From the IMG/VR virus record IMGVR_UViG_2711768002_000001: a DNA stretch of 7,847 nucleotides. One strand, 5' to 3'. Positions within the stretch are counted from its first letter, which is position 1. Each line of letters begins with the position of its first letter. The notes under the pieces were generated by a model, which worked only from the letters and a program-made list of their open reading frames with translations, searched no databases and had not been told where the DNA came from. The translations under genes and the position numbers were made by a program. This DNA comes from a virus (taxonomy: Duplodnaviria; Heunggongvirae; Uroviricota; Caudoviricetes). This document shows, one piece after another, positions 1 through 7,847 of the stretch.

Positions 1-98
1 AGGGACAGCTGATAGAAACAGAAGCCACTGGAGCACCTCAAAAACACCATCATACACTAAATCAGTAAGTTGGCAGCATCACCTCATTCGTCTGTTCC

Positions 99-605
99 TT
101 AAATCTTCCAGGAAATTTCTGCATTGCCGTCAGCATCACCGGCACCTGTGAATTCAGCGTTGGTCAGCACCACGTTTTTGCCACTGACTGACGTGGACAT
201 GAATCCACCCAGCGGCACTTTGATGGATTCATCAGTGGAGACGACAACGTATACCGGATCGCCTTTTTTGATAGTGCTGGCATCAAAATCAGAACCGAGA
301 TTAACGGTCACGTAGCCACGCTTCATGGCGTCGCCCGGGAAGTTCTTGCCTGTTCCCACCTGGCGAACCATGTCCGGCTGCGACGTGGTCGGATAAGGGC
401 GCACGTAGATCCCCTTCACCTTGTCTGCGGTATCACCATCTGCCAGCGGCACGAAAAAACCGTCATCATCGTATTTACCAGCCAGGCCATAGGCAGCGAA
501 GGCGTTATCGGATTTAAGGACCACCGGTTCGACGGTTAAGTCCTGCGGGCGAGAGACAGCCCCGGCAATGCCAACAGGCATCCGGTACAGAAATACATTA
601 TTCAT
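99..605 (-). CDS. Small phage head protein (168 aa), in the position of a head decoration/cement-type protein; product tentative
   Basis: Intact ORF with ATG at 605..603 and TAA at 101..99. An AAGGG Shine-Dalgarno lies 7 nt upstream. It starts 3 nt after the scaffold-like gene stop, in the lambda-like order scaffold -> small head protein. The sequence is Gly/Val/Thr-rich with no TM segment. Family assignment not verified. Confidence 0.6.
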   Translation of the reverse strand: MNNVFLYRMPVGIAGAVSRPQDLTVEPVVLKSDNAFAAYGLAGKYDDDGFFVPLADGDTADKVKGIYVRPYPTTSQPDMVRQVGTGKNFPGDAMKRGYVTVNLGSDFDASTIKKGDPVYVVVSTDESIKVPLGGFMSTSVSGKNVVLTNAEFTGAGDADGNAEISWKI

Positions 606-608
606 TTT

Positions 609-1829
609 TTACCCTTTACGGTTTGCCCAGAATTCAGCGTTTTGTTTGTTCAGGGAAGCGATACTGGTCATGCCCATGTTTAGGCGCTGTGCATCGCCGG
701 TGGTGGCGCGGGTGTTTCGCCCTTTGGCAACCTCAGACACGGCATTAAACGCCATGTCGACCGATTGTTTCGGTAATTTGCGGATATCCGCATCACCGAC
801 TATCTGGCGAACCAGCGTTTTGTCAGCAGAAGCCAGAACCTCGCGTTTGAACGCGGTCGGTTTCATCTTACGGCTCAGATCGATACCCGGAACGATAACT
901 TCGGCACGCCAGGCTGAGTCACCAGTAATCGTGGTTTCCTCTTCATCGTCCTCGCCGTCACCGGTCGGATTATCGTCAGGCTTATTATCGTTATCGCCCG
1001 TGGCATTTCTTTCCAGCTTAGCCAGCAGGGCTTTCAGTAATGTTTTGAGGTCATCATCACTGTCGCCGGTTGGATCTCCGCCCATCTCTGGTGCTTTGTC
1101 CGGTAGTGGTTGCTGCGGGGACAGGTTGATGTTGAGATTAACGCCCTGCGGCAAATCCCCCTCATCTCCTGTAACCGATGCGGGAGCCGACTCCACCAGT
1201 TCGTTCATGGTGTCGGCATCTCCTGTCTTGATGGCCGCACGCATGCGGTTCCACCAGTTTTTCTTTTGATTTGCCATTGTGTCTCTGTCTCCAATTGCAC
1301 AACGATTTCCGGCTCTGCCTTTAGGGACAAGAGCCACATGGTTTCCGGTAATATCGACCTGCTCGGCTTTACCTGGCTCGGTCTGCTCGTACTCCGCGTC
1401 ATAGCCGCACGACACTTCGCGCAGGCCATCTTCGATAAGCTGAATGGCGCTTTCGTCTTTGACGATAAGGTCAGCCAGCATCAAATCAGACTGCTCACCC
1501 GTCCCGCGCCGGACATTCTGGAGGTGCCCGACAGCAAGCTCTTTCCAGTTCTCGGGATTTACCAGCCGCACATTCCCGTTTTCATCTTCAGGATGCAGGA
1601 TCGTGATGCTCATCCCTTCGAATGAGGCAAGCGTGGCCGGATGGAATACCTGCTCAGGAGAACGCGTGACGACTATTTCACCGAACTTATCGGGTTTCAG
1701 TTTTGGCAGGTCATCAGCACCATAGAGCTGCTTACCTGTTCGTCCTATCGGCACGTCTTTGCACAGCAACGAGCCGTCAGCCAGGCGGTATCGGGTTTCC
1801 CCGAGCCTGGTCTCAAAAAAGTATTTCAT
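609..1829 (-). CDS. Phage head scaffolding/maturation-like protein (406 aa) with an acidic low-complexity central linker
   Basis: Intact ORF with ATG at 1829..1827, 3 nt after the upstream TAA, and TAA at 611..609. The central region is highly acidic (DSDDD ... DNDNKPDDNPTGDGEDDEEETT) with reiterated TGD motifs, typical of scaffold-like proteins. It sits between the head morphogenesis gene and the small head protein. Family not verified. Confidence 0.65.
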   Translation of the reverse strand: MKYFFETRLGETRYRLADGSLLCKDVPIGRTGKQLYGADDLPKLKPDKFGEIVVTRSPEQVFHPATLASFEGMSITILHPEDENGNVRLVNPENWKELAVGHLQNVRRGTGEQSDLMLADLIVKDESAIQLIEDGLREVSCGYDAEYEQTEPGKAEQVDITGNHVALVPKGRAGNRCAIGDRDTMANQKKNWWNRMRAAIKTGDADTMNELVESAPASVTGDEGDLPQGVNLNINLSPQQPLPDKAPEMGGDPTGDSDDDLKTLLKALLAKLERNATGDNDNKPDDNPTGDGEDDEEETTITGDSAWRAEVIVPGIDLSRKMKPTAFKREVLASADKTLVRQIVGDADIRKLPKQSVDMAFNAVSEVAKGRNTRATTGDAQRLNMGMTSIASLNKQNAEFWANRKG

Positions 1830-1832
1830 GGG

Positions 1833-2615
1833 TTATGCTGCCCTTTTCATTGCGAATGGAACGCGAACAAACACGATCTCTTTATAGCAGCGGCAGTTTG
1901 GCAGCTCGCCCGCGTGGCCGGTCATGCCGTCCAAAGTTGGAGGTGAATCCCAGCGGACGAATTTACCTTTCATGTGATCGTGGGAATCTCGGACATCGCC
2001 ATCATCGGCTGTACGCCAAATATAACCATCCGAGCCAATAGCTATCGCTCGGGCCATATCCAGCGCGCCCGTTGCTCTTCCCAGTTCCGTTCGGGCAATC
2101 AGATCGGCCCTAGACTTAGCAACATCGCCGGTAGATGCAATCTCTTTAGCAAACTGCTCCGCCCGACCACCGGTGACAACAGCCTCTATCGCTTTGTTCT
2201 GGATGTCGTACACCCTGTCTGCGGCCTCGAGAGGCAGAGATTTGATGTACTTGACCTGTTCGGCGATGATGGATTGCATCACCTGGCCCACAGGAGCGCT
2301 TTCCACAAGATTGCGGAGCTCGCGACTGATGTTCTTGCTGTGTTGCCGCCAAACTTTCTCGTTCTGCCGGGTTAGGTCCGCAGTAAAGTTTTCCGCGACC
2401 TTTGTCGCCCAGGGGGTGATGATTTCACTGTAACGCTCCAGCGCCGCAATAATTTCCGTGATACTGTCATTTGAACCATCGTAGCGACCATTTACGATGT
2501 CTCCGACCGCCCTCGCTATCCTGCGTAGGCTGGTTCGATACCGGATTTCCGCCTGACGGCTCCTGCGGTTCGTCATCAGGTTCGCCGATGCCGGGCGGCG
2601 CTTCATCTTCGGCAT
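1833..2615 (-). CDS. Phage head morphogenesis protein, Mu gpF / SPP1 gp7-like (260 aa)
   Basis: Intact ORF with ATG at 2615..2613 and a GAGGA Shine-Dalgarno 8 nt upstream; TAA at 1835..1833. It contains an ADLIARTELGRA-type motif and a basic N-terminus, and lies immediately downstream of the portal as in Mu/SPP1-type head modules. The 5' 149 nt overlap the portal 3' end in another frame. Confidence 0.75.
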   Translation of the reverse strand: MPKMKRRPASANLMTNRRSRQAEIRYRTSLRRIARAVGDIVNGRYDGSNDSITEIIAALERYSEIITPWATKVAENFTADLTRQNEKVWRQHSKNISRELRNLVESAPVGQVMQSIIAEQVKYIKSLPLEAADRVYDIQNKAIEAVVTGGRAEQFAKEIASTGDVAKSRADLIARTELGRATGALDMARAIAIGSDGYIWRTADDGDVRDSHDHMKGKFVRWDSPPTLDGMTGHAGELPNCRCYKEIVFVRVPFAMKRAA

Positions 2616-3549
2616 TCTCGATGTCCTCGTCGGTAATGGATGCCCCGATGCCGGTTACGTCAGAATTTTCTCGCAAATCAGTCATAGCGGCTTTCAGTGT
2701 CATCAGACCATCACCCAGCGCCGTACTGATTGCGTTGGTGGTGTTTAACGCCACCGTTGAGCGATCGACATCAGACATTTGCCAGAGCGGGTTAAACTCA
2801 AACGTGAAATCGTCCGGCAGCGGCTTGCCAAGTTCCGAACGATGCATGATGTCCAGTATCCGCCGCACCGGAAGACGTAAACGCCTCTCCTGCAACGAAC
2901 TGATGCGATCGTAATAGTTGGCAAGGTCTGCATCACCGGTAGAAAATCCTTTCGGGGACTGTCCGAACAACCGCACCAGTGGGATACCAACAGCGCCACT
3001 AATCTGTTCTACAAACTGCGAAAGGATGTCATCCAGACCACTGAAGCTGTACTGATGGGTTTCAAACTTATCCCGCGAGTCCATGAGCGTCATGCCTTCA
3101 TTACTCTGGAACTGTCGAATCAGGTCGATATTCTTCAGCAACGCTTCATACGCAGGACCACCAAGTGCGATAAGCTCGCGTAGCTTCTCCACGCTGTAGG
3201 TACGCAAATGCGCCTTGTAGACCAGCTGCGCCGCGCCGACAGTAGCGCTGTCGAACGCGGTAAGACGATCCCAGATACGCTCTACAACCGACATTCCCCA
3301 TTCGTTCTCGGTCATCTTCTGCTGAAATGGCAACGTGACGCCATCAAAGCGAATCAGGCGACTGTGATGAATGCGCCAGGCAGGAATTCCCGTTGCTGTG
3401 GTCACCACATCGTAAAACTCAGGTTTACCCAGGTCCGGCCCCATATCTTTAATGCGGCGGGTCAGTGCCGGGTCGACCATCCAGCGGTCGAGCGGGAGAA
3501 TCCCCTTAAACTTGCCCTTACCGATGGTTTCGGGTCGCAGCGGGGTCAT
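2467..3549 (-). CDS. Phage portal protein, intact 3' segment (360 codons) downstream of the second in-frame TAG
   Basis: ORF from ATG at 3549..3547 (GAGGGG 9 nt upstream) to TGA at 2469..2467. It has an acidic C-terminal tail (DEDIENAEDEAPPGIGEPDDEPQEP) typical of portals and sits directly after terL. This ATG is in frame with the upstream interrupted portal sequence. Confidence 0.8.
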   Translation of the reverse strand: MTPLRPETIGKGKFKGILPLDRWMVDPALTRRIKDMGPDLGKPEFYDVVTTATGIPAWRIHHSRLIRFDGVTLPFQQKMTENEWGMSVVERIWDRLTAFDSATVGAAQLVYKAHLRTYSVEKLRELIALGGPAYEALLKNIDLIRQFQSNEGMTLMDSRDKFETHQYSFSGLDDILSQFVEQISGAVGIPLVRLFGQSPKGFSTGDADLANYYDRISSLQERRLRLPVRRILDIMHRSELGKPLPDDFTFEFNPLWQMSDVDRSTVALNTTNAISTALGDGLMTLKAAMTDLRENSDVTGIGASITDEDIENAEDEAPPGIGEPDDEPQEPSGGNPVSNQPTQDSEGGRRHRKWSLRWFK

Positions 3550-3933
3550 TGGTGCCTACCCCTCAATCATGATGAAACCCACCGCGCCGCCGTAGAGGCG
3601 CGACCATTTCAGCACGTCATTCAGCGCATCCCAGATTTGCAACTCATCCAGTTGTGATTCGAGAATGCCACGATCTTTTGCATCAATTTCCGAAGTGATG
3701 CGAATGCCTTTGCGGGTCATATCATCCGGGATAGCATCGACTGCTTCGCCGATGATCTAGGATGAACGATAGGACCATTCCACCAGCATGCGGTTACGAC
3801 TGGTGAAATTAGCCCGGTAGGTGGATGCTGAGTGCTGGTTAGGTGTCTGCATCCCTACGCGGGCAATAAAATTCTCATAACCATCAGCTGTGGCCTGCAC
3901 AGTTCGCCGCAGGGCTTGTTTGTTTCGTGCCAT
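2467..3933 (-). pseudogene. Full-length portal reading frame (about 488 codons) interrupted by two in-frame TAG codons
   Basis: Hand translation of the minus strand from ATG 3933..3931 gives MARNKQALRRTVQATADGYENFIARVGMQTPNQHSASTYRANFTSRNRMLVEWSYRSS, then TAG (3759..3757), then IIGEAVDAIPDDMTRKGIRITSEIDAKDRGILESQLDELQIWDALNDVLKWSRLYGGAVGFIMIEG, then TAG (3558..3556), then APMTPLRPET... All are in one frame (3759-3558 = 201 = 67x3). The ATG overlaps the terL TGA (TGATG) and has a GGGGAGA Shine-Dalgarno. Confidence 0.7.
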
Positions 3934-5336
3934 CAGGCCTGTCTCCCCAGCTGTTCCCAGATATCCAGCGATGTATCGATTGGCGCGAAGGCCATAATGA
4001 ATGCATCAGCAACGTTTGGTGACGGTATCTCGCGTTTTGCGAGGTCTTTTTTACTTTCGACCATCACACGTCCGTTACGGTCGAAATCACGATGAGGTGT
4101 TGTCAGTTCCAGTTTCAGCTTTTCAAGCAACGGACAACGAGAATCTATGCTGATCAGCTCATCCACAGGATACTGTTCTCCGTTGTTAATGGCGTTAAAC
4201 GTATTTCTGAAACGGTCAGCCACCAGCCACCATGCCTGAGCCTTAAGATTTGCGAAAAAGTCTTTGTTGGGGATGCCGTTGTACTCGTCATCTGGCTCAT
4301 GCACACCAGCACCGGCGTTAAACCTCTGGTAATTCACACGTCGCGCGTATGCGTTCTCGCTCTTCCGGTCAGCGTTAATTTCAGAGAATTTAGCACCGGC
4401 AGACGCACCAACACCGATAGAGTCGTAAACAATATCTGCTTCACGCTCCAGCGCCGCCTGATAAGTACGCTGGCAGCTCTTCAGTAATTCATCTTCTTTG
4501 GCCTTCCATTCGTCGGCCCAGAAAACAACGGATCCGTGACGGTAAACGTTAGCGCACTTATCTGTACCACTGTCAGCCACGTCAAAGCCAATACGCTTTC
4601 TTCCACTGGGTTCGAAATTTAACGTTTTGTGCGCATCCACTGCGGCTTCTATCCAAGACAGTTTGATGATTGCCGCATCATCATCAGACTCCGGAACGCC
4701 CTCATACACATGTTTAAAACCATCCGGATCACGGCGTCGCGCCGCGTCGATAACCTTAAGCATGGTGTCAGACAGAAACGGATTTTCGTCATAGTTAATT
4801 TTGCGGATGAGAGTGCCTTCGGGCGGATCAACAACGAAGTTGCGCCAGACGAAATCAGTAACAAGTCCGGGGTTGAATATGAACCAGCATTCCGAACCCT
4901 CTTTACGGATCGTTGGCTCCAGAATTTTCCACTGGTATTCCGTCAGTGCGTGGGCTTCTTCCAGCCACAACACATCGATCCCCTCCAGTGACTTAATTTC
5001 TTCGATGTTGCGCCATAATCCATAAAAAACAAATTCCGAGCCAGTAACCCGGTTAATGATTTTGTTGTTCAGAATACGGAAACGGTGCCGCAGACCAAAC
5101 CTGTCTATCTGAATTTTGAGCAGGGTATACACCGACTCTTCGATTTTATTCTGGATCTGACGGGCACAACAAAAACGCAGGGTGTATTTATTCGACAGAA
5201 ATATGGCAATGCCAGCGGCATCCCATGATTTTGACGATGACCGACCACCATAAAGCACTTTGTTACGTGCCCGCATAGTCCAGAAACTACGTAAAGCCGG
5301 ATTCAGCGTCGGTTTGGATGTCAGAGTAGAAGTCAT
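3933..5336 (-). CDS. Terminase large subunit (ATPase/nuclease); start uncertain
   Basis: Long minus-strand ORF with TGA at 3935..3933. Walker A-like VLYGGRSSSKS and Walker B-like IDVLWLEEAH are present. The six-frame ORF extends to a TTG at 5444, but that would overlap terS by 157 nt. In-frame ATGs at 5375, 5363, 5360, 5354 and 5336 are candidate starts. I chose 5336 (about 50-nt overlap with terS) as a compromise. Confidence 0.85.
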   Translation of the reverse strand: MTSTLTSKPTLNPALRSFWTMRARNKVLYGGRSSSKSWDAAGIAIFLSNKYTLRFCCARQIQNKIEESVYTLLKIQIDRFGLRHRFRILNNKIINRVTGSEFVFYGLWRNIEEIKSLEGIDVLWLEEAHALTEYQWKILEPTIRKEGSECWFIFNPGLVTDFVWRNFVVDPPEGTLIRKINYDENPFLSDTMLKVIDAARRRDPDGFKHVYEGVPESDDDAAIIKLSWIEAAVDAHKTLNFEPSGRKRIGFDVADSGTDKCANVYRHGSVVFWADEWKAKEDELLKSCQRTYQAALEREADIVYDSIGVGASAGAKFSEINADRKSENAYARRVNYQRFNAGAGVHEPDDEYNGIPNKDFFANLKAQAWWLVADRFRNTFNAINNGEQYPVDELISIDSRCPLLEKLKLELTTPHRDFDRNGRVMVESKKDLAKREIPSPNVADAFIMAFAPIDTSLDIWEQLGRQA

Positions 5337-6051
5337 TGAGGTCACGCTCTCCATTGCCATCATCAATACCTGCATCACGGCGAAGACGATCAGCCTCCAG
5401 AGACACCTTATCAGTGGCGGCCTTGCGGTAGGCTGTATCAGCAAATATTTTTCCTACCGTCGCAAGCGTGCCAACGATGGACTCAATACGAACTGTATTG
5501 CGCATCATTGCTTTCTCGGCGGCGCTGATATTTTCAATCAGCATCTTCCTTTCCTGGTCCCCATTAGCATCTTCCAGCGACACCAACCACCGACCAATAT
5601 TCTCTGCAGCGACAAGGTTGTTAGCACGAAGGCGAAATAATTCGTCCTCGAGCGTCAACGCTTTAGCGTCCTCTATCACCTCATCTTTGAGCAGAAGGCG
5701 ACGGGCATAACCACCGTGTTTTAATGCCTGCTGGTTACCGGGTTGGAATGGGTTAGTCGGGGGATCGGTACGCATTCCGCGTATCGGTTTCGTATCCGGT
5801 GTAGATTCTGTTTTTAGTTGCGTACTTTTTTGTGTAAGGCCAGTAATGGCAGGCTTTCTGCTGGTACGCACTTTCCTTTTTTGCGTACCATTTTTGCAAA
5901 CCTGCGTACCGCCACTGCGTGCCCAACCAAGCTTTTTGGCCCTCTTCCTGATAGCCCCTTCTGTAACGCCGTATTTCTCGCCTATATCACGGAGGCTAAG
6001 GACTCCGGCCCGGTATGCCGATTCGATGGCCTCCCAGTCCGGTTTTGCCAT
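5287..6051 (-). CDS. Terminase small subunit (254 aa) with N-terminal helix-turn-helix
   Basis: ATG at 6051..6049 with an AGGAAG Shine-Dalgarno about 8 nt upstream; TAG at 5289..5287. The N-terminus (LSLRDIGEKYGVTEGAIRKRAKKLGW) is HTH-like. An NPFQPGNQQALKHGGY motif resembles conserved small-terminase motifs. It lies immediately upstream of terL. Confidence 0.8.
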   Translation of the reverse strand: MAKPDWEAIESAYRAGVLSLRDIGEKYGVTEGAIRKRAKKLGWARSGGTQVCKNGTQKRKVRTSRKPAITGLTQKSTQLKTESTPDTKPIRGMRTDPPTNPFQPGNQQALKHGGYARRLLLKDEVIEDAKALTLEDELFRLRANNLVAAENIGRWLVSLEDANGDQERKMLIENISAAEKAMMRNTVRIESIVGTLATVGKIFADTAYRKAATDKVSLEADRLRRDAGIDDGNGERDLNDFYSDIQTDAESGFT

Positions 6052-6165
6052 GATTATGCTTCCTGTGATTTACTGTTATCGCTGCCTGTCACAATAGGTT
6101 GCTTTAATTCTTCCTCATCACTCACTCCTGCGACGCTCCGTGGCAGGGCCCCCCACAGGAGTACC

Positions 6166-6195
6166 TTGTAAATGTAAGGTGTTTAAGCCTAAATT
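6166..6195 (+). promoter_or_regulatory. Candidate sigma70-type promoter for the moron (-35 TTGTAA, 18-nt spacer, -10 TAAATT)
   Basis: Hexamer match seen by eye in the AT-rich sequence 50-80 nt upstream of the 6249 ATG. Not scored computationally. Confidence 0.2.
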
Positions 6196-6248
6196 AAGTC
6201 GTATCACGGTTAAATAGCAAAGAAAAATTCACAGAAGGAAAGACATTG

Positions 6249-6758
6249 ATGGAGTGGATAAATGCTTTGATGAACTATTTTGTACTTCATCCATATCGCC
6301 TATGGGGGCTTCTTTTTATAATAGCGTTCACAAAATCCACTTTACTCATTTCGGCGATATTGCCACCAGCATCAATTATGATGGCCACTGTAATTACAGT
6401 CAGCAAGACGACTCTTTCACCATGGGAAGCTGGAATCACGGTCATGAGTGGCGCATGGTGCGGTACTATCGTTAATTACCATCTTGGTATAATAATTGGG
6501 CATATCCCTCAACTTGCATGTATAATATCAAGCCGTTCCAATACAATAGAACGGGTTCGCCTTCAGTTGCAAAATAACTCTGTGTCAATACTTTTCACTT
6601 CGCGCTTTATCGCCGTGCTGCGTTATATTGCTCCTTTGGTGGCAGGAATGTTGCAACTTCATCCAGTGAAAGTGTATACAGTGAGTCTGATTTCAGCTGC
6701 TAGCTGGTCAGCACTTTATGTTGGTAGTTTTAGCTTCGTGTTGCCTTTTTTTAGCTAA
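6249..6758 (+). CDS. Small polytopic inner-membrane protein, divergent DedA/YqaA (VTT-domain)-like; moron
   Basis: ATG at 6249 (the ORF track starts at a TTG at 6246) with a GAAGGAAAG Shine-Dalgarno; TAA at 6756..6758. It is the only plus-strand gene and is visibly AT-rich compared with the flanks. There are 4-5 hydrophobic segments. SRFIAVLRYIAPLVAGMLQL resembles the DedA GRFIPxxRxxxPxxAG motif, and NYHLGIIIG resembles the Y-x-LGR motif, but the conserved acidic/basic residues are not obvious. Confidence 0.55.
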   Translation: MEWINALMNYFVLHPYRLWGLLFIIAFTKSTLLISAILPPASIMMATVITVSKTTLSPWEAGITVMSGAWCGTIVNYHLGIIIGHIPQLACIISSRSNTIERVRLQLQNNSVSILFTSRFIAVLRYIAPLVAGMLQLHPVKVYTVSLISAASWSALYVGSFSFVLPFFS

Positions 6759-6846
6759 ACTGCCCATAAAAAGCTCTTGCGAATCCAGCTTCCCCCATTC
6801 CTCTGACAACAGAATCTGATTTGAAGGATAATGAGTAAAATTACCG

Positions 6847-7245
6847 CTACCCCCCAAGGCATTGGATCCTGATGTACTCCTGAAGCATTCTCAATGCTGT
6901 CTGGTCGCTGATGATTCCGTCCCGGATACCGAGAACGTTTCGTCCAGCAACTGGAGAGAGTTCGACGGTGGCATCATTGCCCATGCCGGAGGCGCTGGAG
7001 GTTTCGGCTGAGGATGGCACAGGGCATTTTCCTTTGACGAGCACCCGACCACCATTATCAAGCTTGCGCCGAAGAGCATCATTTTCAGCTTTCGCATCAG
7101 CTAACTCCAGCTTCAGTTCTCTTGCGTTTTTGTCGCGCTGCTCTTTGTAGGTAATGGCGTTATCACGGTAATGATTAACAGCCCATGACAGGCGGACGAT
7201 GATGCAGATAACCAGAGCGGAGATAATCGCGGTGACTCTGCTCAT
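6847..7245 (-). CDS. Rz: Rz-like i-spanin (inner-membrane spanin subunit)
   Basis: ATG at 7245..7243 overlaps the endolysin TGA as ATGA; TAG at 6849..6847. It has an N-terminal TM segment ([18 protein letters not shown]) followed by a charged, coiled-coil-like region ([29 protein letters not shown]). The ORF track's GTG at 7257 is probably an over-extension. Confidence 0.75.
6891..7097 (-). CDS. Rz1: Rz1-like o-spanin (outer-membrane lipoprotein), fully embedded in Rz in another frame
   Basis: ATG at 7097..7095. It has a signal peptide with a lipobox (LIMVVGC followed by SSK) and a proline-rich mature part ([17 protein letters not shown]). It lies entirely inside the Rz coding region, as in lambda Rz/Rz1. 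Confidence 0.7.
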
Positions 7246-7739
7246 TGCTGCCCCCACAAACAGACTTCACGCTCAATCTCACGACGGGTCATCAGCCCTT
7301 TCCATTGCTTACCGCCAGCATATGTCCAGCGACATAGCTGGTCACATGCGCCTTTGATATAGCCCTGGTTTATTTTGCGAAGAAGCGTCGATGTTCTGAA
7401 ATTGCCAGCGCCCACGTTGTAAACGAACGAGTAAAGAGCGCCGCGCGTTGTTTCCGGTATATCGACTTTGATGTACGGGTTAATTTGTCTGGCGACAGTG
7501 GCAAGGTCTTTATTCAGGAGAGCTTTGCATTCTGCTTCGGTATACGTTTTACCAGGCATGATGTCTTTTCCGGTGTGTCCGTGACATACAGTCCATACAC
7601 CAATGATATCTTTGTATAGTATGTAGCTGACACCTTCCAGACCATCGTTACCACCTGGGCCAGTGATTAACACAGATGCTATAGCAACAGCCCCGCCACC
7701 AATAGCAACTGCAACAGCCTTGCGTAATGATGGCGACAT
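7242..7739 (-). CDS. SAR (signal-anchor-release) endolysin, T4-lysozyme-like muramidase; phage 21 R-like
   Basis: ATG at 7739..7737 with a GAGAGGTGA Shine-Dalgarno; TGA at 7244..7242. The N-terminus has a Gly/Ala-rich weakly hydrophobic SAR segment ([23 protein letters not shown]). This is followed by a catalytic E-x8-D-x5-T arrangement ([16 protein letters not shown]). It is 165 aa and followed by Rz/Rz1. Confidence 0.9.
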
Positions 7740-7793
7740 TATTCACCTCTCGCAGCCTTACTAGACTGGCCCCCTGAATCTCCAGACAACCAG

Positions 7794-7813
7794 TATCACT
7801 TAAATAAGTGATA
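7794..7813. promoter_or_regulatory. 20-bp palindrome TATCACTTA-AA-TAAGTGATA (9-bp perfect arms), operator-like
   Basis: Arms verified as exact reverse complements. The half-site begins TATCAC, as in lambdoid repressor operator half-sites. It lies about 55 bp upstream of the endolysin start in a region with no ORF. Confidence 0.3.
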
Positions 7814-7847
7814 GTCTTAATACTAGTTTTTAGACTAGTCATTGGAG

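Follow-up and report, generated by a model that had tools for sequence, protein, structure and literature searches.

Two in-frame amber codons in the portal gene of a Shigella sonnei prophage remnant

Related portal genes and prophage decay

The portals of Salmonella phage SEN34 (Brunovirus; YP_009191609.1) and of E. coli prophages (WP_000113499.1) belong to the DUF1073 / PF06381 / TIGR01555 family, are encoded by 1467-nt genes with a start that overlaps the terL stop, and lie in the gene order terS, terL, portal, Mu F, DUF2213, cement, DUF2184 capsid. The portals of the Pseudomonas phages Pam3 (8hds) and E217 (gp19; 8fvh) are distant, functional homologues. Shigella evolution has involved massive pseudogenisation via IS elements and point mutations, and genome reduction is described in the same source, with reference to Hawkey et al. 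2020 and Feng et al. 2011 (PMC8072062). Laboratory amber (sus) mutants carry an in-frame TAG in an essential morphogenesis gene, arising via G:C-to-A:T transitions.

The DNA analysed here, a stretch of 7,847 nucleotides referred to as the window, carries a portal gene of the same family, length, terL overlap and gene order as those of SEN34 and the E. coli prophages (Table 1). Its frame differs from WP_000113499.1 at three residues (TAG at 59 and 126, Val for Ala at 308). Unlike the SEN34 and E. coli prophage genes, the window copy sits in a truncated element, and, because it contains two internal TAG codons, it is a pseudogene of the family and not a working member, in contrast to the Pam3 and E217 portals. 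It shares its type of lesion with the sus mutants but differs from them as a natural, lineage-fixed chromosomal remnant without capsid and tail genes and with no suppressor tRNA in the window. With its IS1 and IS2 insertions, an IS-adjacent deletion and nonsense mutations in genes that were needed no more, the element does not differ in substance from the published picture of Shigella decay; it is of an already known kind, and the gene is an ordinary pseudogene of a decaying prophage that public databases already contain. The reading that we favour, with a probability of roughly 0.93, is that of an S. sonnei prophage stump with a portal gene killed by two point mutations as part of largely neutral decay.

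Table 1 Features of the window and S. sonnei-specific changes in the portal gene.
Feature	Position	Strand	Details
IS1 end	1..83		
Structural cement / minor capsid protein	99..605	minus	Intact; last phage gene before IS1
DUF2213 head protein	609..1829	minus	Intact
Mu F-like head morphogenesis protein	1833..2576	minus	Intact; 110-nt overlap with portal 3' end
Portal pseudogene, DUF1073 / Phage_portal_3 / HI1409 family	2467..3933	minus	Identified by translation, PF06381, TIGR01555, 8hds and intact orthologues
Residual 360-aa portal ORF	2467..3549	minus	Met129 to end; Q3Z426_SHISS, 'putative bacteriophage protein'
Ala308Val	3011..3011	minus	GCA to GTA; third and only other S. sonnei-specific portal change
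Amber codon 126	3556..3558	minus	CAG (Gln) to TAG, coding-strand C-to-T; plus-strand 3558 A, relatives G
54-aa middle portal fragment ORF	3556..3720	minus	Met72 to Gly125
Amber codon 59	3757..3759	minus	TGG (Trp) to TAG, coding-strand G-to-A; plus-strand 3758 T, relatives C
58-aa N-terminal portal fragment ORF	3757..3933	minus	
Terminase large subunit (PBSX family)	3933..5336	minus	Intact, 467 aa; stop overlaps portal start
254-aa hypothetical protein	5287..6051	minus	Small-terminase position (assigned by position); ends in TAG
DedA/VTT-domain membrane protein (moron)	6246..6758	plus	Opposite strand
Rz spanin	6847..7245	minus	72-bp (24-codon) in-frame deletion at 7107/7108; ends in TAG
Rz1	7097..6891		Embedded in Rz
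Lysozyme (RrrD-like)	7242..7739	minus	Intact
Class II holin gene, last 23 nt	7739..7761	minus	Severed from remainder by IS2
IS2 end	7762..7847		Inserted 23 nt before holin stop

The portal frame and its interruption

Translation of the minus strand from 3933 to 2467 gave 488 codons closed by TGA and interrupted exactly twice, each time by TAG, in agreement with the preliminary description of a frame broken solely at these two codons. The portal ATG (3933..3931) and the terL TGA (3935..3933) have one A in common, and GGGGAGA lies upstream of the ATG at 3948..3942; the sequence and the annotations of intact orthologues both confirm that 3933, proposed earlier from this coupling and motif, is the true start. 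The gene lies between terL, which it directly follows, and the head morphogenesis genes. We ran the suggested comparison with portal families on the translation with its stops masked as X, and PF06381 (Phage_portal_3) matched residues 55-402 (E 5.8e-104; 348.1 bits, cut-off 33.8), so that both stops fall inside the match. The repaired portal sequence scored 255.5 bits for TIGR01555 (cut-off 196.25). The solved Pam3 portal (8hds) aligned to residues 15-413 with an E value of 5.8e-38, and 9jlf, 9l01 and 8fvh (E217 gp19; E 8.8e-15) were further solved homologues. The profile search, these structures and 55 species-level relatives uphold the identity of the N-terminal 128 residues as portal sequence. 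We rejected a true start at 3549 preceded by an unrelated gene, since in 52 of the 55 relatives a homologous N-terminus is open for at least 120 codons upstream of the Met129 equivalent, and since the RefSeq and phage annotations begin at the equivalent of 3933.

Both ambers are derived single transitions. Intact 488-codon portal genes at exactly equivalent coordinates are present in the prophages of E. coli FDAARGOS_943, FDAARGOS_944 and VL40 (99.8% identical; RefSeq), and intact 1467-nt genes with matching start and end are also found in E. coli P4, S. flexneri and the phages SEN34 and vB_EcoM-689R2. Over 2400..4050, the total difference from the nearest intact genes is 3 nt. At all three sites the intact state is found in P4, the next relative out (97.9% identical), and in S. 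flexneri, and Trp59 and Gln126 are conserved in 44 and 45 of the 55 species-level relatives, respectively. The exact 81-nt context of either amber was absent from all 5,426 complete E. coli genomes. Of possible intermediates, exact protein look-up found a 125-aa fragment that keeps Trp59 and stops at 126 in three Logan contigs and the 417-aa product running from Met72 to the end in one.

Recurrence in S. sonnei and decay of the element

Apart from the 72-bp Rz deletion, ten chromosomes or scaffolds of S. sonnei, among them the complete chromosomes of 53G, 75/02, CP022457 and CP044191, matched the window at 100% identity. The 58-, 54- and 360-aa portal fragments were each found in more than 2,500 public-assembly blocks (counts of 2,576, 2,737 and 2,758), mostly in contigs of 5-10 kb. 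Among the blocks read, the 58- and 54-aa look-ups returned S. sonnei only; in Ss046 the 360-aa fragment is the UniProt entry Q3Z426_SHISS. The strains 53G, 75/02 and Ss046 have been placed in lineages II, IIIc and III (PMC5447701), and both ambers are fixed across the S. sonnei genomes that we examined. The preliminary description had allowed for a sequencing or assembly error hiding sense codons at both sites. One Logan contig does encode a full-length 488-aa protein with Val308 (exact protein look-up), but the same sequence stands in independent complete S. sonnei chromosomes, both lesions are substitutions, whereas sequencing errors are typically homopolymer indels, and exact recurrence of the fragments in thousands of independent assemblies excludes such an error, to which we assign a probability close to nil.

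Compared with FDAARGOS_944, strain 53G lacks 19,075 bp that begin where the capsid gene starts and end just short of pgl, and has one IS1 instead; in the relative, this segment holds the major capsid, neck, tail and tail fibre genes and ipaHb. The S. sonnei holin gene is split by IS2. The locus thus has the two marks of a cryptic remnant: essential modules are gone relative to the orthologous element at the same chromosomal site, and remaining genes are disrupted (holin by IS2, portal by two ambers and, in the window, Rz by its 72-bp deletion). Judged by its gene content, the prophage is probably incapable of yielding virions. With ambers that are derived and fixed, this bears out the earlier proposal that an essential gene of a cryptic prophage was inactivated by nonsense mutation. 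The accompanying judgement that the element was otherwise intact does not stand, as the IS1 and IS2 ends of the window had been missed; the statement that all other genes are intact holds for the remaining complete ORFs, which are open, but not for Rz with its deletion or for the holin gene, represented by 23 nt, and the window itself begins inside IS1. With these two ends the window looks like a repeat-bounded contig. Among its other products, the cement protein matched the E217 gp24 / Pam3 gp6 family, the 254-aa protein had no family match in profile searches, and the 132-aa product of the deleted Rz had no record in the protein look-up.

Sister copies of the prophage carry different lesions, which indicates that they decayed independently: in FDAARGOS_943, terL is interrupted by IS2 and the Mu F gene contains an internal stop, and in S. 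flexneri terL has a 1331-bp insertion and there are truncations. In S. sonnei 75/02 the locus lies in region pp10 (3,461,614-3,492,646), labelled 'Intact' by PHAST (PMC5447701). The gene-level evidence contradicts this label, and such inspection indicates that this region, although scored as intact, would be unable to yield phage.

Suppression, selection and residual fragments

Two amber codons in an otherwise perfectly preserved portal frame could also point to a suppressor-dependent mutant or to programmed read-through or recoding, with TAG read as sense and a full-length portal still made. A search for tRNA genes found none in the window, hence no suppressor tRNA within it. Under a reassigned code TAG would be unused as a terminator, but here it is the normal stop of two neighbouring genes, those of the 254-aa protein and Rz; the relatives have Trp and Gln at codons 59 and 126, which indicates recent mutation and not a recoded lineage. 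Nor does the shared amber type require suppression: 28 of the 49 possible G:C-to-A:T nonsense transitions in the portal gene yield TAG, the commonest nonsense outcome here via CAG-to-TAG and TGG-to-TAG, and two ambers are therefore the expected flavour. A suppressor-dependent phage would keep the rest of its virion gene set intact, whereas at this locus the capsid and tail genes are gone and the holin gene is split, so that any portal made would have no assembly partners. The option of a suppressor-dependent, still-working phage, raised in the preliminary description, thus fails in practice, and we regard suppression or recoding of any kind as hardly credible; what the gene displays is most probably ordinary decay with no special translation mechanism. 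A related doubt concerns the 360-aa ORF from 3549, which might be an N-terminally truncated portal-like protein retained by the host for some function. In all S. sonnei assemblies read, this ORF is open and its sequence identical. It has a plausible Shine-Dalgarno motif (GAGGGG) 9 nt upstream, and has counterparts starting at the same Met annotated in S. dysenteriae Sd197, 1617 and 155-74. Its identity says nothing about constraint, however, because S. sonnei is too clonal; the GAGGGG corresponds to Glu-Gly codons of the intact gene and is no newly evolved signal; the absent 128 residues align to the Pam3 portal structure and are conserved in 52 of the 55 relatives; and the capsid and tail partners of the product are absent. 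Four amino-acid changes among the 360 residues are private to the Sd197 copy, one of them Trp-to-Arg and two Pro-to-Leu, and this argues for drift. Retention of this truncated protein is very improbable, and the 54- and 360-aa ORFs are presumably leftovers without function.

Whether loss of the portal was itself favoured was considered from the substitution pattern. The 13 differences of the window from both nearest relatives comprise two nonsense, seven missense and four synonymous changes, roughly the pattern of unselected mutation. Nonsense changes make up two of the three S. sonnei-specific portal substitutions, for which the naive P is about 0.003-0.011. As the portal gene was chosen for having a stop, the relevant test is for at least one nonsense change among the other two, which, calculated from the same rates, has a P of about 0.07-0.12; for at least two nonsense changes among all 13 window differences, P = 0.04-0.14. 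This mild excess of nonsense may reflect some selection for inactivation, such as locking in the prophage and its cargo, and the same-Met 360-aa fragments in the three S. dysenteriae strains and the ipaHb cargo of a related prophage are compatible with it. Yet the excess is not significant once the choice of gene is corrected for, other copies of the prophage decay by quite different lesions (terL, Mu F, truncation), a portal knock-out does not stop induction or lysis, and nothing is left to lock in because ipaHb itself is deleted in S. sonnei. Adaptive inactivation is accordingly unlikely. The S. dysenteriae annotations also mean that the Gln126 amber may predate S. sonnei. That this amber, perhaps with the other, is common to S. 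sonnei and S. dysenteriae, which are separate Shigella lineages, or else that the 360-aa fragment was kept for a host function, we consider quite unlikely; shared ambers would imply recombination that carried a dead prophage segment from one Shigella lineage to another, or a convergent, selected knock-out of the portal.

In the reading that we favour, the window is a stump, made up of lysis, terminase and head-assembly genes, of a SEN34-like (Brunovirus-type) prophage adjoining pgl on the S. sonnei chromosome. Two independent G:C-to-A:T mutations, Trp59 TGG to TAG and Gln126 CAG to TAG, inactivated the portal gene as one part of a general decay, presumably neutral for the most part, that also included the IS1-associated 19-kb loss and the IS2 split of the holin gene. 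The portal message would be translated for 58 residues and no further. The first stop, or the loss of the capsid and tail genes, would have freed the portal gene from selection, after which a second nonsense mutation would be unremarkable.

The biological weight of the locus is small, as it is a textbook instance of how a prophage decays while its host genome shrinks. Both ambers, like the junctions with IS1 and IS2, cleanly mark the S. sonnei lineage. The result is also of practical value for annotation: databases carry the three portal fragments as individual 'putative bacteriophage proteins' (Q3Z426_SHISS and others), and the UniRef name given to one of them is 'Alpha/beta hydrolase'.

The portal reading frame and its protein family

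Translation of the window yielded a portal frame of 488 codons followed by TGA, broken by exactly two internal stops, both TAG, at codons 59 and 126; on this point the preliminary description was correct as written. The A of the portal ATG (3933..3931) is common to the terL stop TGA (3935..3933), and a GGGGAGA motif lies ahead of the ATG at 3948..3942, both as previously described. Outside the largest surviving ORF, most of the frame is taken up by two short ORFs of 58 and 54 aa.

Features of the window and differences from its E. coli relatives
Feature	Position	Strand	Remark
IS1 end	1..83		window start
Portal frame	3933..2467	-	488 codons
58-aa ORF of portal frame	3933..3757	-	ORF call
54-aa ORF of portal frame	3720..3556	-	ORF call
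360-aa ORF of portal frame, largest surviving	3549..2467	-	ORF call
Amber codon 59	3759..3757	-	window translation
Amber codon 126	3558..3556	-	window translation
Trp59 TGG to TAG	3758	+	window T, relatives C
Gln126 CAG to TAG	3558	+	window A, relatives G
Ala308 GCA to Val GTA	3011	+	window A, relatives G
254-aa protein, terS position		-	packaging/head operon
PBSX-type TerL		-	packaging/head operon
Mu F-like head morphogenesis protein		-	packaging/head operon, after portal
DUF2213 protein		-	packaging/head operon
Cement protein		-	packaging/head operon
170-aa DedA/VTT-domain membrane protein	6246..6758	+	between lysis cassette and terminase genes
Lysozyme, Rz, Rz1			upstream of packaging operon
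Rz	6847..7245	-	
IS2 end	7762..7847		window finish

The stop-masked frame matched PF06381 (Phage_portal_3, formerly DUF1073) with an E value of 5.8e-104 over residues 55-402, so that the match runs through both stops. The repaired portal scored 255.5 bits against TIGR01555 (NCBIfam, HI1409 family), passing the cut-off of 196.25, and aligned over residues 15-413 with the solved Pam3 portal (PDB 8hds, E 5.8e-38); other solved portals, including E217 gp19, also aligned. These matches bear out the proposed portal assignment, and the window gene belongs to the DUF1073 portal family as a pseudogene. Some intact homologues (E. coli hits H18, H63 and H67; proteins P0034, P0049 and P0060) carry the PGAP label "anti-CBASS protein Acb1 family protein". 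Because the NCBIfam scan of the portal protein gave TIGR01555 alone and the solved-structure matches were all portals, this name looks like an annotation artefact. The 54-aa fragment is named "Alpha/beta hydrolase" in UniRef.

A standard packaging and head operon surrounds the portal on the minus strand. The annotated Mu F-like gene (start 2576) shares 110 nt (2467..2576) with the portal 3' end in another frame, and the size of its product varies by gene caller (152, 247 or 260 aa). The DedA/VTT gene is a moron-like insertion, kept in the closest E. coli copies (VL40, FDAARGOS_943 and FDAARGOS_944) and missing from the P4 copy and phage vB_EcoM-689R2.

Origin and distribution of the two amber codons

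The same prophage was found at 99.8% identity in three E. coli chromosomes (FDAARGOS_943, FDAARGOS_944 and VL40), all annotated with an intact 488-aa portal (WP_000113499.1) exactly at the equivalent of 2467..3933. Over 2400..4050, just three positions distinguish the window from all three relatives, namely the two nonsense changes and Ala308Val; FDAARGOS_944 has one extra private difference, at 4045 in terL. At each of the three, the intact allele is also present in a more distant E. coli copy (P4, 97.9% identical) and in the representatives from S. flexneri. The window therefore carries the derived alleles, and both stops are recent point mutations.

The portal genes of phages SEN34 and vB_EcoM-689R2 are likewise 1467 nt long and start at the terL stop. 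In 52 of 55 species-level relatives, the Met129 equivalent is preceded by 120 or more open codons, in a stretch homologous to the window N-terminus; Trp59 is kept in 44/55 and Gln126 in 45/55. Family portals beginning at the equivalent of 3549 behind an unrelated upstream gene, the arrangement that would speak against a start at 3933, were looked for and are ruled out by this open homologous N-terminus.

Public assemblies list the 360-aa ORF in 2,576 blocks (58-aa fragment, 2,737; 54-aa fragment, 2,758). Chromosomes with this ORF include HE616528.1 (S. sonnei 53G), CP019689.1 (S. sonnei 75/02) (PMC5447701), CP022457.1 and CP044191.1, and sources including UniProt (Q3Z426_SHISS) attribute it to Shigella sonnei. 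Over 1..7108 and 7107..7847 the window and these chromosomes are 100% identical, the sole difference being a 72-bp deletion in Rz, and no exact match to the 81 nt around either amber was found in 5,426 complete E. coli genomes. Given its IS1 and IS2 ends, the 5-10 kb contigs that hold the locus in most assemblies and the usual S. sonnei contig of 7,919 bp (7,847 plus the 72 bp missing from Rz), the window is a typical repeat-bounded short-read contig. The sequencing or assembly error entertained in the preliminary description has a negligible chance of explaining both stops, since the same portal fragments recur in thousands of assembly blocks and in complete S. sonnei chromosomes; the lesions are present in 53G, Ss046 and 75/02, which are assigned to S. 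sonnei lineages II and III (PMC5447701). Public databases have held the fragments since the genome of Ss046 was deposited (Q3Z426_SHISS), and the finding brings no new mechanism.

In three S. dysenteriae strains, exact-sequence look-ups showed annotated fragments of 360 aa that begin at this Met129 as well. Q32EP4 (Sd197 and 1617) has the ancestral Ala308 and five residue differences from its S. sonnei counterpart, and EGI96254.1 (strain 155-74) is identical to the ancestral sequence. Because three annotation pipelines chose Met129 over Met122, an in-frame stop is expected in codons 123-128, where a single-nucleotide change can make a stop only at Glu124 or Gln126, in both cases TAG. From these starts and limited routes on an Ala308 background, the Gln126 amber may be common to S. 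sonnei and S. dysenteriae and is probably older than Ala308Val. Exact look-up also found, in three Logan contigs, a 125-aa product that keeps Trp59 and terminates at codon 126, consistent with the Gln126 amber arising first.

Absence of capsid and tail genes from the locus and the state of the prophage

Beyond the cement gene, the FDAARGOS_944 prophage continues with genes for the DUF2184 major capsid protein, head completion, the neck, tail fibres and a contractile-type tail (with DUF3383 and baseplate J among its components). It also carries the T3SS effector gene ipaHb as terminal cargo adjoining pgl, and it ends in a DNA-invertase fragment beside pgl-ybhD-ybhH. The homology of S. sonnei 53G to this prophage breaks off 4 nt into the capsid gene, is followed by one IS1 and picks up again shortly ahead of the invertase fragment and pgl. 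The 53G locus has this single IS1 (L008, 13467..14234) in place of 19,075 bp, including ipaHb (983..20061 of L089, the FDAARGOS_944 locus). A second IS1 in 53G replaces the whole of ybhI, together with part of ybhH and the first part of ybhJ, and IS2 is inserted 23 nt before the holin stop. The S. sonnei locus has no capsid or tail genes and its holin is split, so that even a functional portal would lack partners for assembly. Of the explanations offered in the preliminary description, a nonsense-inactivated gene in a cryptic prophage accords with this state; its statement that every other gene is intact does not hold for the holin or for Rz.

The S. sonnei prophage is a defective, SEN34-like one. 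PHAST lists the 31-kb region pp10 of 75/02 (CP019689.1 3,461,614-3,492,646) as "Intact", with SEN34 as best match (PMC5447701). This region, which holds the 75/02 copy of the locus, contains the double-amber portal, the IS2-split holin and the chromosomal genes pgl to ybhC, and no capsid or tail genes; contrary to its label, it is not intact.

Probable neutral decay and alternative explanations

In the portal gene, stops are created by 3.6% of all single-nucleotide changes and 6.2% of G:C-to-A:T transitions; as 28 of the 49 stop-creating transitions of this type give TAG, amber is the expected flavour. The naive probability of two nonsense changes among three substitutions is 0.003-0.011, but the gene was picked for study for having a stop. 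Given one stop, the same rates put the probability of one or more further nonsense changes among the remaining two at about 0.07-0.12. Thirteen differences separate the window from both nearest relatives, of which 2 are nonsense, 7 missense and 4 synonymous, a split close to the unselected-mutation expectation; for this whole set, the probability of at least two nonsense changes is 0.04-0.14. Sister copies have lesions elsewhere: in the FDAARGOS_943 copy, terL contains an IS2 and the Mu F gene an internal stop, and the S. flexneri copy (SFBU1023 and "E. coli" ECMA0423 loci, L017 and L018; 7553..8883 and 9617..11083), cut off on both sides, keeps an intact 488-aa portal with a 1,331-bp insertion in terL and represents an independent route of decay. 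This is the pattern of neutral decay, and it agrees with what has been published on pseudogenisation in Shigella by IS elements and point mutations (PMC8072062). Selected inactivation of the portal is improbable, and nothing requires it.

Suppression or recoding, by which TAG would be read as sense as in a suppressor-dependent amber mutant, is extremely unlikely: TAG is the terminator of Rz as well as of the 254-aa gene, no tRNA lies in the window, codons 59 and 126 are Trp and Gln in relatives, and the virion genes are gone from the locus. A functional 360-aa product restarting at 3549 is likewise very unlikely. The GAGGGG taken for its ribosome-binding site consists of Glu-Gly codons of the intact gene, the 128 missing residues are conserved portal structure, and four amino-acid changes are private to the version in S. 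dysenteriae Sd197.

The 132-aa product of the deleted Rz has no record in the public collection. The deletion, which removes 24 codons in frame at 7107/7108 relative to every S. sonnei chromosome read and to the E. coli relatives, has GG microhomology at its flanks, and its end lies 10 nt upstream of the point where the embedded Rz1 starts (7097).
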